64,000 bases of DNA, from the NCBI RefSeq assembly GCF_947581785.1, contig NZ_CANPVO010000036.1:15490-79489 (forward strand). Direction: 5' to 3'. Below the pieces are notes generated by a model that saw only the letters and a list, made by a program, of their open reading frames with translations, was not told where the DNA came from and did not search any database. Source of the DNA: Candidatus Palauibacter polyketidifaciens (GTDB lineage: Bacteria > Gemmatimonadota > Gemmatimonadetes > Palauibacterales > Palauibacteraceae). Below are positions 3,586 to 48,895 of the stretch, in pieces. Position numbers and translations under genes: made by a program. Numbering within the stretch: position 1 is the first letter of the stretch; each line of letters begins with the position of its first letter.

Positions 3586-4986
3586 TCAGGGTCGGATGAC
3601 GCCGACGCCGTTCTCGATCGTCATCGTCGTCCCGAACTCGGCGGAGAGCTTCGCGAGACCCTCGAGGATCTCCTGCCCGTGCGCGTCGTCGGCCATCATC
3701 GGCCGCCCCCGCACCGGCCGCGGCAACTGCCAGCCCATGGTGATCGGGTGGAGCTGGACCTCCTTCAGCTTCCCGCCCTCGTACTCCACGACGGGGACGA
3801 CGCTCTCCCAGAACCCCTTCCCCGCCGGGAAGGATGAGGCGCCGGCCCGCTCGATCCGCACATCCTGGAACCGGCCCGGAAGGTCCTGGTACCCCAGCCC
3901 CTGGGCCTCGTAGTTGTCCTGCGGCTGGAACTCGATCGTCTCGTTCTGCATGGCGAAGTTCGCCAGCGAGTAGAAGATCGGCTTTCCCCGGTACATCTCG
4001 ACCGCCCGCAGGATGTGGGGGCCGTGGCCCACGAACATGTCCGCGCCGGCGTCGACGGTCGCCCGGGCGACGTCGACGAGGAAGTCCGCCGGCACCTCGC
4101 GGCGGTCCGCGCCTTCGTGCGAGTGGCTCGTGACGATGACCCACTCGGCCTGACGCTGCGCCTCCTTCACGACTTCGATGATCTCCGCCAGGTCCCCGGT
4201 GTGCGGCACCGTCTTCACGTCCGGCTTGTCGCCCACCACAAACGTCATGCCGCCGAAGTTCAGCGTCGAGCCGGAACCGCCGTTCCGTCCCGCCACAGAG
4301 AGCGCGTCGCGGAGGCCCGCCATTTGATCGGCGCTCACGGTCACGTGCCGCTCGTACCGGATCGGGCTCAGCCCCGGCCGCCCCCGCACGTCCGGCCGCT
4401 GGTGGCCGGCCCGCATCGCGTCGGCGAAGGTCGAGGCGATCGAAATCAGCGCGACCCGGCCGCCGGGCGTGTCCACGTAGGCCGGGGCCCTCGCCCGCGC
4501 GAGGTTCTCGCCGAAGCCGGCGACGGCGAGTCCCGCCGCCTCGGCCGCCGCCACGGTGCGCCTCGCCCCGCCGGCGCCGAAGTCCATCGTGTGGTTGTTC
4601 GCGAGGCTCACCATGTCGAACCCGAACCAGGCGAGTTCGTGCGCGATTTCCGGCTCCGCCCGCATGTAGGTGCCGCCGCTCGCCGCCGCCGGGATCACGT
4701 CGTCCTCGTAGTCGTGGAACAGGATCTCGAGGTTCACGAACGCGGTGGTCGCACTCTGGATGATGTCGCGCAGCGCGAGAAACTCGGGCTCCCGGTACGG
4801 AGACATCTTCCGGGAGATGATCGCGTCGCCCGCGAGGGCGATGGACATGTCCCCGCGCGCGTCCTCGAACGCCTGCGCTTCGAGTGCGACGGGTTTCGCG
4901 AGGGAGACTCCGGCCGCGAAGAAGACGGCGGCCGCGAACCCGGCCAGCGGGAGGGAGAGCGAGAGCGGAAAACGATACCGGCGCAT
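3586..4986 (-). CDS. CapA/PgsA-family metallophosphoesterase-like protein (poly-gamma-glutamate synthesis CapA family).
   Basis: Signal peptide MRRYRFPLSLSLPLAGFAAAVFFAAG. Motifs HSHEGADRREVPADFLVDVARATVDAGADMFVGHGPH and IFYSLANF. ATG at 4986; the upstream 57 codons of the listed ORF are read-through. Confidence 0.8.
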   Translation of the reverse strand: MRRYRFPLSLSLPLAGFAAAVFFAAGVSLAKPVALEAQAFEDARGDMSIALAGDAIISRKMSPYREPEFLALRDIIQSATTAFVNLEILFHDYEDDVIPAAASGGTYMRAEPEIAHELAWFGFDMVSLANNHTMDFGAGGARRTVAAAEAAGLAVAGFGENLARARAPAYVDTPGGRVALISIASTFADAMRAGHQRPDVRGRPGLSPIRYERHVTVSADQMAGLRDALSVAGRNGGSGSTLNFGGMTFVVGDKPDVKTVPHTGDLAEIIEVVKEAQRQAEWVIVTSHSHEGADRREVPADFLVDVARATVDAGADMFVGHGPHILRAVEMYRGKPIFYSLANFAMQNETIEFQPQDNYEAQGLGYQDLPGRFQDVRIERAGASSFPAGKGFWESVVPVVEYEGGKLKEVQLHPITMGWQLPRPVRGRPMMADDAHGQEILEGLAKLSAEFGTTMTIENGVGVIRP

Positions 4987-44967: not shown

Positions 44968-45206
44968 AGCTGACGCCGCCGGTCGCGGGCTTCGCGAGCC
45001 TTCTCGTCCCGGGTCTCGGCCAACTCCTGCAGCGCCGAGTCCGAGCAACAGGCGTCTCGCTGGCCAACGCCGCCCTGCTGGTGTATTCGATCACCCATTG
45101 GCTCGCGGACGGCGAGCCGCTCGACTTGATGTGCTCCATCGCCTGCGCGGCCGTGCATGTATTCCAGGCCCTCGAAGCCGTGGAGCACGACCGCGCGGAG
45201 CTATGA
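44964..45206 (+). CDS. Small membrane protein, 80 aa, hypothetical.
   Basis: ATGA overlap with the MBL stop. Two hydrophobic segments (AGFASLLVPGLGQLL; ANAALLVYSITHWLA). Confidence 0.5.
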   Translation: MKLTPPVAGFASLLVPGLGQLLQRRVRATGVSLANAALLVYSITHWLADGEPLDLMCSIACAAVHVFQALEAVEHDRAEL

Positions 45207-45223
45207 ACCCACCCGTAGTGGCT

Positions 45224-45673
45224 TCAGGATTCCACGACTTTGAGCCGGATTGAGATTTCGGGCTCGCGAAGATCGTACCGCAGGTGAATCCATGTTTTTC
45301 CGACCGCCAACCCCGTGATCGTCCAGGAGGAGTACAGCGCGGCGGTTGCGCTGTACTCCTCGATCCGAGCCACACTCAGGTCATCGATCGTCCAGTTCGG
45401 TCGCGCGACGAACAGATAGGAACAGTTTGAGTGGAATTCACGGTCCCTGCCCCACCGGCGCCGGTTCAGGATATGTACGCGAACCCTCTTCGATCCACCC
45501 ACTGGAACTACGATCTCATCGCCTGGTTCGAGATCTGGCTGGAGATCGATCACGGTCGAACAAGGAAACGGCAAATGCCCGGATACGACCTCGGCCCCGC
45601 CGCACGCCACCAGGAAGAGAAGCGCTACCGCGGACGGCTGCCGGACTCGCCACAAGCCCCTCACCCCGGGCAT
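45224..45673 (-). CDS. Small Ig-like (Big_2-like) lipoprotein A, tandem paralog.
   Basis: MPGVRGLWRVRQPSAVALLFLVACGG lipobox. Two Cys in the mature part. NWTIDDLSVARIEEYS...WTITGLAVGKTWI. Lower GC than genome background. Confidence 0.6.
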   Translation of the reverse strand: MPGVRGLWRVRQPSAVALLFLVACGGAEVVSGHLPFPCSTVIDLQPDLEPGDEIVVPVGGSKRVRVHILNRRRWGRDREFHSNCSYLFVARPNWTIDDLSVARIEEYSATAALYSSWTITGLAVGKTWIHLRYDLREPEISIRLKVVES

Positions 45674-45729
45674 ACGGTCTCGCCGCAGCCGGTGTCGACG
45701 GGGATCGTCCATGTGACCGAGGGTTGCTC
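45652..45729. repeat. Copy 2 of a ~77-bp direct repeat (about 95% identical to 46110-46187). It spans the stop of the upstream ORF and the start/signal-peptide codons of the lipoprotein gene.
   Basis: TCACCCCGGGCATACGGTCTCGCCGCAGCCGGTGTCGACGGGGATCGTCCATGTGACCGAGGGTTGCTC versus TCACCCAGGGCATACCGTCTCGCCGCAGCCGGTGTCGACCGGGATCGTCCATGTGACCGAGGGTTGTTC. There are 4 mismatches. Confidence 0.6.
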
Positions 45730-46131
45730 CACGACTTTGAGTCGCTTAGAGATTTCGGTGAACGGACTATGATGCCGCAAGCGGATCGATGTTTCGCCGA
45801 CTGCCAACCCTGTGATGGTCCAAACGCCTGTGCTGTATTCGACGATCCGAGCTACGTTGGGATCGTCGATCGTCCAGGTCAGTCGCGCGACTGACCACTC
45901 GGGGCAACCGCGGTAGTAGTTCGGCTCCCGGTCCGGAAGCTGCCGGATTTGCACGTGAACCCGCCGCACTTCAGCCACCCGAACTACGATGTCAAAGCGT
46001 GGTTCGACTTCGATCAGAGCCGAGCAAGGAGCCGGACTGCCCTCTAGCACCGCCTCGTCGCATGCCGCCAGTAGCGAGAGCGCTACCAGTGGTAGCAGCC
46101 GGAACCTCCGCAGCCCACTCACCCAGGGCAT
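45661..46131 (-). CDS. Small Ig-like lipoprotein B, paralog of A, carrying the same 22-aa C-terminal tail as the S8 protease.
   Basis: MPWVSGLRRFRLLPLVALSLLAACDE. TWTIDDPNVARIVEYS...WTITGLAVGETSI. C-terminus EQPSVTWTIPVDTGCGETVCPG. Confidence 0.6.
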   Translation of the reverse strand: MPWVSGLRRFRLLPLVALSLLAACDEAVLEGSPAPCSALIEVEPRFDIVVRVAEVRRVHVQIRQLPDREPNYYRGCPEWSVARLTWTIDDPNVARIVEYSTGVWTITGLAVGETSIRLRHHSPFTEISKRLKVVEQPSVTWTIPVDTGCGETVCPG

Positions 46132-46187
46132 ACCGTCTCGCCGCAGCCGGTGTCGACCGGGATCGTCCATGTGACCGAGGGTTGTTC
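46110..46187. repeat. Copy 1 of the ~77-bp junction repeat.
   Basis: See copy 2. The two copies are 458 bp apart. Confidence 0.6.
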
Positions 46188-47702
46188 GTCAAAGTCGTTC
46201 GTCACGGTCAATCGCAATGTCAGTGTATAGTTCTCTCTGCTGTTGAACGAGCGTGTGTATCGATCACCAGTACCGGCGGCGGTCCAGGTTGTTCCACCGT
46301 CGGTGCTGGTTTCCCACAGGTACGTCAGCGAGTAGCCGCCCCACCCTCTTCCGCTCCACGTTTGACTTCCGCTCGACGTGACCGAGGACGGTCCGCTGAT
46401 CCACGCGACAGAGCGCGGCGCGTAGAGGAACCTGTTCGGCCCGTTTACGTTCAACCTGCCCTCCGTCGCGCTCGACAGGATCACATCCTTGATGTGAGCG
46501 GGAGACGCCCGATTGTTTTCTTCGCGGAGTATCAGCCACGCTACGGCCGTTACATGTGGCGCTGCCACGGACGTGCCAGACCAAAGATGAATCTCATGCG
46601 TTTGGCTGTATACGGCGCGAACGTCGTTGCCGGGTGCCCAGATATCAACACATGCCCCGTAAGTTGCCGCGGGGTGCTCTTCCGAGTTGAACACGGAGCG
46701 GTTTCCGTTGGAATCTACGGCCGACACAGTGATGACTTCAGTCAGTCGAGCGGGTGACACTTTGCATGCGTCTTTATCGTAATTTCCCGCCCCCACCACG
46801 GTTGTAACCCCGTCAGCCACGAGTCGTTGTACAATCTCATCCACATCGGCGTCAACGGTGTCTGGAGTTGCGAAGCTTATGTTTGCCACCCCGAAGCCCA
46901 TATTGCGGGCGATCACCCATTCGATACCTGCGATGAACGTGCTTTCATCAGCTTCGCGATTATGTGTTATTCTGACGGGGACCAGCTGTACCGTCTTCGC
47001 CACACCGGTGGTGTTGCCTCCGATAACACTTGCAACCGCCGTACCATGGCCGCTGTAGTCGCCTCGACCGTCGCTTAATCCTACAAGATCCACGCCAGGA
47101 AGGACGCGTCCGCCGAACTCGCCGTGGGATATCGTTCCGCTGTCGATTACATATACGGGTACCGATGACGCTGTCTCTTCGTAACGATACGTGCCGTTCG
47201 TAGCGAATTCACGAGAATCCAGCTTATCCAGATTCCATCCTACCCCCGCCGTCTGCGTGTCCAGGCTCGTCTCCTCGGATGGCCGGGATGGAAACAGACC
47301 GGTCGCTTGCAGGATGCGCTCTTCGGACACTCGGACGATTCGCCGGTCCTCCAGCAGCTTGCTCAGGTCGGTGGGCTTGGGCAGATCGTCGGGGTTCGGC
47401 AGCGTGACCGCGAGCCCCGGCAGGCTCGGGTAGACGTACTTCACGGTGGCCGTATGCTCCGCCGCAAGCTGCGCGGCGACTGCGCGGGCATCCTTGTCCG
47501 TGTGAGTCTTCAGGATGTAGGAGTTCGGCACCTTCTCGCCCGGAGCGGGCACAAGCTTGGATGAGTCCGCGCGGGCGTCGAGGCTCGCGCGGGGTGCGTT
47601 CGCCGGAGCTCTGCTGGCCGCCGGATCAACCGTGTCGTTCTGGCAAGCGCTCAACGCGATGGCCAGGGGGATCAGGCGGGACCACTTGGGAGTTTTTGTC
47701 AT
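46119..47702 (-). CDS. S8-family subtilisin-like serine protease lipoprotein with N-terminal I9 propeptide.
   Basis: Lipobox IALSAC. Catalytic triad contexts VYVIDSGT (Asp), HGTAVASVIGG (His), GTSVAAPHVTAV (Ser). C-terminal beta-domain ending EQPSVTWTIPVDTGCGETVCPG. Confidence 0.85.
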   Translation of the reverse strand: MTKTPKWSRLIPLAIALSACQNDTVDPAASRAPANAPRASLDARADSSKLVPAPGEKVPNSYILKTHTDKDARAVAAQLAAEHTATVKYVYPSLPGLAVTLPNPDDLPKPTDLSKLLEDRRIVRVSEERILQATGLFPSRPSEETSLDTQTAGVGWNLDKLDSREFATNGTYRYEETASSVPVYVIDSGTISHGEFGGRVLPGVDLVGLSDGRGDYSGHGTAVASVIGGNTTGVAKTVQLVPVRITHNREADESTFIAGIEWVIARNMGFGVANISFATPDTVDADVDEIVQRLVADGVTTVVGAGNYDKDACKVSPARLTEVITVSAVDSNGNRSVFNSEEHPAATYGACVDIWAPGNDVRAVYSQTHEIHLWSGTSVAAPHVTAVAWLILREENNRASPAHIKDVILSSATEGRLNVNGPNRFLYAPRSVAWISGPSSVTSSGSQTWSGRGWGGYSLTYLWETSTDGGTTWTAAGTGDRYTRSFNSRENYTLTLRLTVTNDFDEQPSVTWTIPVDTGCGETVCPG

Positions 47703-47945
47703 TCCGGTTTTCTCTTCTCGGATCGACGTTCATCGGCGGACCTGAATCGGCGTGAAACAGGTCCAGGGCCGGGTCGGCACGCCCACGTCCAGGGCGAGGT
47801 CGAGTCGTGGCGAGCAGGACTCCGGCGTTTTCGGACCTGATGCTGGCCATGTGTCGGCATCGAAGGAAGAGACAGGATCGATGAATCAGGGGCGAAAGTG
47901 ATGGGAAGGAAACAACAACGATGGTAAGGCTTTACGGCAGCGCGG

Positions 47946-48743
47946 TCAGTCCGTCGGCGGCCGCTTCGCCACGGCCTCCGAGACGGTCTCTTCCAGCAGC
48001 GGCCGCAGGTACTTCGACACGAACGACGCGAGCAGGTGCTCCGGTGCGATCCGTTCGAGTTCGGTGAGCGTGCATCCGAGCCAGGCGCGGGATCTGCGAT
48101 TCAGGGTCGCGCGGGCAAGCCCGAGATGCTCGCTCACCTTCGTCCATGTGGAACCTGCAAGACGAAGCTGGAGCGCCCGGAGCAGCACGAGCCCGCCGAT
48201 GAACGAACTCAACGTCGTCACGCCTCCCGCGTGTATCCTGAACTGCTGCGAGATCGTGATCGGAGAGCGGCGTACGGCCTGCGCCAGCTCGGCGACGTTC
48301 CGCACAGGCATGCTCCTGGCCCTCTGAAAGCTATGGACGAGGCCCGCGCGGAGGGCCGGCGGCAGCCCGGATCGCCGGACCGTCTCGGACAGGCGTGACA
48401 GCGCGACGGTGTGGCGAGCCTCCTCGACCTGGGATTGGAGTTGGGTCTGAACATCATCGAACCAGACGAGAGAGAAGATATTCACACCGCGCAACAAACG
48501 AGGGACGCTGATATCGCGATCCGTCACCAGGATGACCGGAATCAACGGGAGTCTCCGCCCGATGTCCTTGATCAGTACGATTCTGTCCTCGATGAACCGG
48601 CTCCGGCAGCCGATAATCATACAGTCGGTCCGGCTGTCGGCTGAAGTGAGTTCGCTCGCGTCGCCGACTATGATGGCGGCGTCATCAACGGTTTGCCGTA
48701 TGCGCTCGGCATCGGCGCACGTATCCGCCAGGAGCAGGATCAT
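47946..48743 (-). CDS. Transcriptional regulator: AraC-type HTH C-terminal domain with a degenerate receiver-like N-terminal domain.
   Basis: C-terminus VAELAQAVRRSPITISQQFRIHAGGVTTLSSFIGGLVLLRALQLRLAGSTWTKVSEHLGLARATLNRRSRAW fits the two-HTH AraC pattern. N-terminal MILLLADTCAD...IPVILVTD is receiver-like but lacks a clear phospho-acceptor Asp. Confidence 0.65.
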   Translation of the reverse strand: MILLLADTCADAERIRQTVDDAAIIVGDASELTSADSRTDCMIIGCRSRFIEDRIVLIKDIGRRLPLIPVILVTDRDISVPRLLRGVNIFSLVWFDDVQTQLQSQVEEARHTVALSRLSETVRRSGLPPALRAGLVHSFQRARSMPVRNVAELAQAVRRSPITISQQFRIHAGGVTTLSSFIGGLVLLRALQLRLAGSTWTKVSEHLGLARATLNRRSRAWLGCTLTELERIAPEHLLASFVSKYLRPLLEETVSEAVAKRPPTD

Positions 48744-48895
48744 TGCGATGCATACTTTTCAGGAAAGAAGGCGAGACGGCCCGGCGGCTCAATCCGCCGG
48801 ACCCAGTTCGCCGGAAACCTGAGAACGACTCGGGAGCGGGAATCGTGACACCGGCCGCCCGCACGGCGCCCGCGTCAGCCGCACCCCGGTGGCCG

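Follow-up and report, generated by a model that had tools for sequence, protein, structure and literature searches.

The locus described here raises the question of why one short piece of DNA should be almost identical at two neighboring gene junctions when the genes between them are old, divergent paralogs. The window, a 64,000-nt stretch of the Candidatus Palauibacter polyketidifaciens genome, encodes on its minus strand an S8 (subtilase) protease followed by two lipoproteins, B and A. The last 22 codons of the protease gene with their stop codon (T1) recur as a second copy (T2) at the junction of B and A. A first-pass annotation of the locus had proposed recent gene conversion, a functional nucleotide-level element or a propagated C-terminal sorting tag as explanations. 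We consider it probable that T2 is instead a relic of a protease 3' end, the footprint of cassette-type recombination anchored in this part of the protease gene.

Self-comparison of the window reveals a minus-strand direct repeat with 458-nt spacing (46052-46187 joined to 45594-45729), which confirms the repeat seen in the first-pass annotation between the protease/B and B/A junctions. T1 and T2 form its near-identical core, with 4 mismatches in 69 nt (94.2%), or 3 in the 66 nt from CAACCC to the stop codon. The 4 mismatches had originally been counted over a longer, 78-nt span (46110-46187 versus 45652-45729); we find 8 there, 4 of them in the 9 nt past the stop codon, and the identity breaks off precisely at the stop codon that ends the protease frame. 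The remaining aligned units are 45–77% identical in 60-nt intervals, and the probability of at least 63 matches in 66 nt is 1e-5 to 3e-11 at a background identity of 0.75–0.60. A 50-nt pattern of the repeat matches the window at two places only and none of 100 shuffles. Four collinear repeat families span the 458-nt unit, and their head-to-tail arrangement, constant period and novel junction are the footprint of a tandem duplication. The bodies of A and B share 45% protein identity, close to the half identity estimated earlier, and an old tandem duplication alone cannot, as had been argued, leave a tract of 94–95% identity beside them.

The protease consists of an I9-like propeptide region, a catalytic domain and a C-terminal immunoglobulin (Ig)-like domain. 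Its open reading frame (ORF) and that of B both end in ...EQPSVTWTIPVDTGCGETVCPG-stop, so the same 22 residues are indeed present on both proteins, and lipoprotein A lacks them as reported. The 12 protease orthologues analyzed (∼50–90% identity) end in ...PSxTW[TED][IV][PS]V[DN][TI]GCxxxxC[PVT][GK], and orthologue P0011 continues into PKD domains after this motif, showing that a C-terminal position is not required. An exhaustive, profile-free search with the last 108 protease residues returned 277 proteins, many of them giant proteins with 5–27 matching repeats; the matches belong to this protease family and to generic Ig-like repeats. In P0102, the best giant protein, which has PKD_6/Ig_3 matches, each repeat ends in ...YRVQVGSGCGGIV, aligning to ...WTIPVDTGCGETV of the protease. 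The protease C-terminal domain is thus homologous to PKD_6/Ig_3-type repeats of giant proteins, including a V-x-x-G-C-G segment. Because of this orthologue conservation and repeat alignment, we assign the tail by sequence comparison to the protease itself, as the last strand of its C-terminal Ig-like domain with the Cys-x4-Cys-Pro-Gly terminus. A structure model of the full protease is poor (predicted local distance difference test score (pLDDT) of 41) and weakly supports VTWTIPV as a strand.

This assignment contradicts the idea of a propagated C-terminal sorting or processing tag. Established C-terminal sorting signals (PEP-CTERM, MYXO-CTERM, GlyGly-CTERM, LPXTG and the C-terminal domain (CTD) of the type IX secretion system) resemble the tail in that a short Cys/Gly-containing C-terminal motif is found on more than one secreted protein. 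They consist, however, of a motif that leads into a hydrophobic helix and a basic cluster, or of a CTD of 80–100 aa; they are recognized by curated hidden Markov models, and a genome that uses them has a dedicated sorting enzyme and many unrelated proteins bearing the signal. The tail, in contrast, lies inside an Ig-like domain, stops 2 residues past its second Cys (...GCGETVCPG-stop) without a hydrophobic, transmembrane or basic segment, and is limited to one protease family and accidental fusions. Neither the protease nor B matched a sorting-signal model in Pfam or NCBIfam at E ≤ 0.1, and sorting-signal, defense and toxin models from Pfam, NCBIfam and PADLOC returned nothing relevant for the tail, A or B. 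In a search of 5.8 billion proteins, the match covering only the tail of B is a fragment of the same protease. The suggested search for other proteins ending in the tail was similarly unproductive: among the 26 clusters of the lipoprotein family, the members ending in CPG besides B (P0001) are a C-type lipoprotein of L020 with a partial tail (P0078) and a vestige (P0080).

The four differences between T1 and T2 are all third-position synonymous changes in the protease frame (GAA/GAG, CCG/CCC, ACG/ACC and CCT/CCG). Nei-Gojobori counting finds none of the 49 non-synonymous sites changed and 4 changes at the 16.7 synonymous sites, a synonymous divergence (dS) of 0.29. For the mature A and B bodies, non-synonymous divergence (dN) is 0.385 and dS is 0.69, with 74 of 246 non-synonymous sites changed (30%). 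Tail and bodies differ strongly at non-synonymous sites (Fisher p = 2.7e-7) and not significantly at synonymous sites (p = 0.11, or 0.06 without the junction codon), and the excess identity of T1 and T2 is confined to the former. The T1-T2 dS equals ordinary orthologue divergence between strains (0.24–0.35) and lies well below the old paralog split. The best reading of these data is that the identity reflects purifying selection on the protease C-terminus, T2 having been either a functional protease allele until recently or occasionally converted by T1.

The repeat had also been described as a dual-coding element, of which a short overlap survives. In the +1 frame (MDDPGRHRLRRDGM...), the T1/T2 differences amount to 3 non-synonymous and 0 synonymous changes, and the long N-terminal extension in this frame is therefore non-coding. 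A long dual-coding ORF starting MDDP is ruled out by the substitution pattern and by gene calls for P0001 and P0002 that start MPxV. The ORF of B opens at 46170; the likely starts of B and A are ATG 46131 and ATG 45673, and other assemblies call P0001 and P0002 from this internal ATG, made by the codons GTA TGC. The real ORF overlap is 13 nt, including the upstream stop codon (ATG 46131 versus TGA 46121-46119, and ATG 45673 versus TGA 45663-45661). The arrangement resembles that of translationally coupled gene pairs, in which the downstream start lies within the last codons of the upstream gene (ATGCCCTGGGTGA for protease/B and ATGCCCGGGGTGA for B/A). It differs in that the same lipoprotein genes start 14–45 nt past the upstream stop in other strains.

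Related strains provide the comparative evidence for a relic. About 12 related loci were fetched, and the 75 nt upstream of each lipoprotein start were aligned; the lipoproteins were sorted into types X, B (with a divergent form Y), C and A. Arrays comprise one to three lipoprotein genes, and the order is protease-B-A in the window and in L022, protease-X-Y in L001, ...-X-C in L017 and truncated protease-X-C-A in L020. L018 has a degraded protease, B and the start of C fused to mid-A. L015 and L016 (relic-B-C-A) and L023 (relic-C-A) have no protease. In L002 and L003 the order is protease-C, flank remnant, orphan protease fragment and A, and L008 contains the protease, one lipoprotein and an outer membrane protein (OMP) gene. 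An ancestral order X-B-C-A with differential loss fits most strains, the exception being L017, where a B/A-like 3' end lies ahead of X.

Relics of the protease 3' end were recorded at 16 junctions in 9 strains, with lengths from ∼330 to 0 nt. The longest, ∼330 nt before A in L002, comprises the complete C-terminal domain, followed by 102 nt in L023, 66 nt in the window before A, in L015 before B and in L017 before C, and 51 nt in L001 before Y and in L020 before C. At the C-A junction of L020, 36 nt before A are fused via an internal deletion to an upstream protease fragment (...ASPTHIKNAIRS), and essentially no relic is left before C and A in L015 and before X in L017. Relics in L001 and L017 stand behind an in-frame stop codon and that of L015 has no gene upstream of it, which again speaks against a propagated tag. 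Synonymous variants in the relics are mostly those found in the functional tails of other strains, and relic-private changes are mostly non-synonymous.

The B orthologues of L015 and L018 end in ...KVVE followed directly by TAG or TGA and then the C gene, and have no tail. The in-frame fusion of B to a relic is therefore specific to the window lineage, and these orthologues likewise count against the tag. The junction GTGGAG-CAACC is also found upstream of B in L015 and L016, where it lies beside the degenerate 3' end of a lipoprotein gene and has one derived base in common with T2. It thus probably arose once and was later moved by recombination. Clustering of the copies rests on few sites: the two window copies have one derived site in common (the CCC codon, absent from T1 of L018), and T2 shares another with the relic of L015.

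The window locus is a mosaic of sequences resembling different strains. Its regulator and the 5' two-thirds of its protease gene are 92–99% identical to L001 and 69–89% to L018 in a sliding comparison (95–99% to L001 for this part of the protease alone). The protease 3' third, from ∼47100, is 68–93% identical to L001 and 87–93% to L018 (the latter from ∼46500, as the preceding part is deleted in L018). For B the values are ∼50% and 93–97%, and for the downstream flank 87–96% and 81–89%, respectively. A breakpoint is visible at ∼47100 inside the protease gene, where the resemblance to L001 drops and that to L018 rises to 93–97% through the end of B. The first repeat unit is 90% identical in L015 and 93.6% in L018; the match stops at 45728 in both, and with it the block shared with L018, at the junction of B and T2. 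Array orders B-A, B-C-A, X-C-A, X-Y, X-C and C...A, together with the identity switch within the protease, document exchange and reordering between strains. The orphan fragment of L002 has a dS of 0.33 and an omega of 0.23 relative to the L001 protease, and a dS of 1.16 relative to the resident L002 protease; A of L002 has a dS of 0.29 relative to A of the window, versus 0.84 for the resident proteases. The 458-nt units do resemble an ordinary tandem duplication in being head to tail, in the same orientation, joined at a short microhomology (GA[A/G]) and more alike in one tract. They differ from it in that the bodies are far older than the tract, neighboring strains combine and order four paralog types differently, and the locus is mosaic; a single in-place duplication therefore does not describe this locus.

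Several loci contain displaced or damaged pieces of the protease. L002 (5169-5434; L003 3668-3933) carries the orphan protease fragment with an intact C-terminal Ig-like domain and tail, free of stop codons and frameshifts. It is preceded by remnants of the downstream flank, namely the gene for a small membrane protein and a 3'-terminal piece of a metallo-beta-lactamase-fold gene, as would be left between C and the orphan if a segment had been added rather than replaced. In L012 (5719-7094, Candidatus Palauibacter rhopaloidicola), where no protease gene is nearby, a family lipoprotein gene lies behind an orphan, degenerate remnant of the protease C-terminal domain, and the C-terminal fragment of a tyrosine-recombinase-like ORF follows. 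The protease is degraded beside intact lipoproteins in L018 (2056-2895, internal deletion and frameshift) and in L020 (5001-5873, 5' truncation beside IS1595-family transposase genes). L021, from another protease clade, contains a 110-nt direct repeat (4089-4198 and 4849-4958, 93% identical) that flanks an OMP beta-barrel gene. The repeat comprises the last 20 protease codons, the stop codon and a 48-nt spacer, with three coding differences, all non-synonymous, and lower-GC DNA with a PhdYeFM/ParE toxin-antitoxin pair follows. Duplication of the protease gene end is thus recurrent. A scan of metagenome contigs returned only an unrelated subtilase locus.

The gene anatomy, the graded relics, the mosaic structure and the pattern of substitutions are direct observations; the order of events set out next is our inference. 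A cassette unit would consist of the protease 3' part and a Big_2-like lipoprotein gene; homologous recombination in the conserved protease gene, combined with an illegitimate join downstream, would add or swap lipoprotein genes, and unequal exchange within the array may contribute. Each event would leave a protease 3'-end relic ahead of the displaced lipoprotein gene, to be trimmed by later deletions. The extreme 3' end would survive longest, as the next gene has its start codon there, probably with part of its initiation region. In the window, a block of the protease 3' third, T1 and B would have been joined at ...VVE-QPSV..., within the GA[A/G] microhomology, to a T2 already present before A. 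Such a join would remove the stop codon of B, and because the 458-nt unit is 2 mod 3, B would continue through T2 in the protease frame. Accidental read-through into the relic, a by-product of the join, is then the most likely origin of the shared Cys tail on B, and T2 may help to start translation of A.

Four points weigh against this reconstruction. A T2 evolving neutrally over a dS of 0.29 should have accumulated ∼7 changes at non-synonymous sites and has none, and either the join is therefore recent or T2 has been under conversion or selection. The recent version is in turn strained by the derived site and junction type that T2 shares with the L015 relic, which suggest that the junction predates a split at ∼10% nucleotide divergence. 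The three junctions without a relic weaken the need for one in translation initiation. Finally, the comparison draws on about ten related loci, mostly short metagenome contigs, and constrains the history of the locus loosely.

The missing non-synonymous changes could alternatively mean that the tail of B is functional, as a disulfide, a docking site for the protease or a partner, or a processing site, with T2 kept by purifying selection on the B C-terminus. All T2-private changes are synonymous, T2 has no non-synonymous difference from T1, the fusion is kept in a second strain (L022), and the L020 C-type lipoprotein also ends in ...VDTGCGKTVCPG. The closest B orthologues (dS 0.10 and 0.24) nevertheless have no tail, untranslated relics in L015, L002 and L017 show the same synonymous excess, and L022, at 98.6% identity, is too close for independent retention. 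As the tail would moreover be a strand taken out of its domain, with a predicted coil structure, we regard a functional tail as unlikely. Intragenomic gene conversion alone, in which T1 and T2 date back to the A/B split and T1 periodically overwrites T2, would account for the sharp boundaries of the tract, for the derived CCC codon shared by T1 and T2 and missing from L018 T1, and for a tract dS (0.29) below that of the bodies (0.69). The dS difference falls short of significance (p = 0.06–0.11), a tract end at the stop codon is equally predicted by coding selection or an allele boundary, the L002 relic has not been homogenized with its resident tail (15 differences in 51 nt) and the L001 relic is decaying. 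Recent conversion, as suggested in the first-pass annotation, may have contributed; it overlaps with our preferred explanation rather than excluding it, and as the sole cause it seems to us quite improbable.

Proposals that place the function in the DNA or RNA itself fare worse. The 66 nt would in this case serve for site-specific recombination (as an att/cassette site) or be required for translation initiation or coupling. At 15 of 16 junctions they contain the start codon of the next gene, the stop/start overlap recurs at B/A, the left boundary GAG-CAACC is common to three junctions, the left boundary in L021 is at most 6 nt from the same codon, and an integrase fragment adjoins the orphan module in L012. 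Against a fixed recombination site, relic boundaries vary (330, 102, 66, 51, 36 and 0 nt), the common GAG-CAACC boundary is explained by descent, and there is no recombinase gene in the ORF list between the flanking genes of the window locus. The differences fall at third codon positions of the protease frame, unlike the pattern expected of a DNA site, and three lipoprotein genes have no upstream relic. Folding of five copies gave minimum free energy z-scores of +2.05, +1.05, -1.0, +1.2 and +1.1, none significantly stable, and Rfam returned no match at E < 0.4 for 44.5–48.5 kb and two chance-level matches elsewhere. The RNA structure suggested for the repeat thus found no support, as no stable or conserved fold is apparent; a region no more structured than shuffled sequence is, on the other hand, what a translation start region might look like. 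A site-specific cassette site was rejected as the main explanation, since relic boundaries vary and the common boundary traces to one ancestral junction, and we consider the nucleotide element as a whole very improbable, although the repeat plausibly has a role in starting translation of the next gene. T1 of L002 (4282-4300) has the inter-Cys residues RGAT instead of GETV, and the new codons form a strong Shine-Dalgarno-like GAGGAG 5 nt before the downstream ATG, which hints that initiation at the next gene has also shaped the loop codons of the tail. The earlier suggestion of an assembly artifact, here a collapsed or chimeric repeat, deserves consideration in that the window stems from a metagenome-assembled genome (MAG), P0005 being annotated as a MAG protein. 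We give it next to no credence, as L022, an independent metagenome assembly from another sample (98.6% identical over 6.5 kb), contains both copies base for base in the same structure, the copies differ at 4 positions and have unique flanks, and homologous junctions are found in several strains.

The features of the window locus are collected in Table 1. The protease is 100% identical to the Gemmatimonadales MAG protein P0005, and its more distant relatives come from MAGs of Candidatus Palauibacter, a marine Gemmatimonadota group (PMC10469786). The 21 residues of B that come after the shared Glu codon (QPSVTWTIPVDTGCGETVCPG) are encoded by T2 in the protease frame. The HTH-like gene upstream of the protease is found in every protease-bearing strain (seen in L001, L002, L018 and L022), and orthologues of A were found in L002, L015, L020 and L023. 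A small convergent gene lies downstream of A. The GC content of block 45200-48800, which holds the regulator, the protease and both lipoproteins, is 55–65%, compared with 70–73% in both flanks, and the HTH-like gene is probably part of the same low-GC block. The stretch with regulator and protease (window 48812 to 46188 or 46224) is absent from L015, L016 and L023, which have the left junction in common. The block therefore looks like a strain-variable islet. A promoter and terminator scan of 44.9–48.1 kb found none.

Table 1. Coordinates of the protease-lipoprotein locus in the window
Feature	Position	Strand	Description
265-aa protein	47946..48743	minus	weak C-terminal Pfam HTH_23/HTH_18 (helix-turn-helix) matches; upstream of protease
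S8 (subtilase) protease, lipoprotein	46119..47702	minus	527 aa; Pfam Peptidase_S8 8.7e-33; signal peptide ...IALSAC
T1, protease last 22 codons and stop	46119..46187	minus	holds B start ATG 46131-46129 (Val-Cys codons GTA TGC)
Repeat unit 1 (458 nt, 2 mod 3)	45730..46187	minus	T1 and B body up to ...KVVE
Lipoprotein B, lipobox LLAAC	45661..46131	minus	156 aa from ATG 46131; P0001; Big_2-like Ig domain
Novel junction GTGGAG-CAACCC (...VVE-QPSV...)	45727..45732	minus	B's own stop missing; GAA TAG in L015, GAA TGA in L018
T2, probable relic of protease 3' end at B/A junction	45661..45729	minus	B stop 45663-45661; A start ATG 45673-45671
Lipoprotein A, lipobox FLVAC	45224..45673	minus	149 aa; Big_2-like paralog of B; ends KVVES-stop

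The AlphaFold model of B (pLDDT 77.6) has a single beta-sandwich at residues 36–134 and a tail in coil conformation (pLDDT ∼60–70); Foldseek matches include the lambda gpV C-terminal Ig-like domain, SbsC, Big_2-CBM56 and LigA/B. The lipoprotein family is tiny; it comprises the 26 clusters found among 5.8 billion proteins, has no Pfam domain and keeps two Cys, one Trp and a TITGLAVG motif. Two hybrids were noted: P0081 combines a C-type signal peptide with an A-type body and has its lipobox Cys replaced by Trp, and in L018 (3291-3345) a C-type start is fused to the middle of A. Recombination or deletion between paralogous cassettes is thus frequent. At position +2 past the lipobox Cys, B has Asp (46059-46061, C-D-E), A reads C-G-G (45601-45603) and the protease C-Q-N; Asp at +2 causes inner-membrane retention in E. 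coli-type Lol sorting, a rule that may not hold in Gemmatimonadota. Lipoprotein A contains a perfect 14-bp inverted repeat with a 7-nt spacer (45327-45361, GAGGAGTACAGCGC / GCGCTGTACTCCTC), coinciding with an A-type-specific insertion (...EEYSATAALYSS...). The inverted repeat is kept in the A-type gene of L002, where it is matched in inverted orientation, and may be a templated palindromic insertion.

The closest precedent for displaced modules with fragments of a main gene is found in the orphan cdiA-CT/cdiI and rhs-CT/rhsI arrays of the contact-dependent growth inhibition (CDI)/Rhs systems. There, downstream modules keep varying lengths of conserved main-gene sequence, identity drops abruptly past a conserved motif, modules are common to several strains, orphan fragments usually have no translation start of their own, and recombination between the conserved pieces has been proposed as the mechanism of exchange (Poole et al. 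2011, PMC3150448). The present locus likewise has variable genes behind a large conserved gene, displaced modules that carry main-gene fragments of varying length, an abrupt drop in identity, here at the stop codon, and modules exchanged and reordered between strains. It differs in that conservation lies in the extreme 3' end of the main gene, whereas in CDI/Rhs the conserved motif precedes the variable toxin domain, and in that the variable part is a separate Ig-like lipoprotein gene behind a conserved protease C-terminus. Searches of Pfam, NCBIfam and PADLOC detected no toxin or immunity domain and no secretion partner, no toxin, immunity or defense model matched the locus beyond a generic subtilase, and a C-terminal toxin domain with a cognate immunity gene is absent. 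With a conserved protease C-terminus, Ig-like lipoproteins as the variable genes and no match to toxin, immunity or defense models, the locus is not a member of the CDI/Rhs family.

Taken together, the Cys tail does not represent a novel sorting tag, nor does the region code extensively in two frames; the repeat is the footprint of ordinary evolutionary processes in a moderately interesting strain-variable locus. Annotation should set the lipoprotein starts at the internal ATG, treat ORFs beginning MDDPGRH... as frame-shifted readings of the protease tail, and flag the last 21 residues of B as a probable evolutionary fusion artifact. More generally, an apparently conserved common motif can come from a recombination footprint, in which a relic inherits the purifying selection of a neighboring gene. 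The locus brings together a strain-variable protease block of low GC content and lipoproteins of an unannotated family with a single Ig-like domain, and provides a small case, from an uncultured phylum, of an orphan-fragment architecture outside toxin systems. Rather unlikely is a reading in which the protease 3' end is a homology handle of cassette exchange for fast-diversifying surface Ig-like lipoproteins in marine Gemmatimonadota. These would be partners, substrates or inhibitors of a co-transcribed surface protease, with relics kept for reloading. If true, the locus would be a non-toxin counterpart of the CDI/Rhs orphan arrays, and might serve surface variation or strain recognition.

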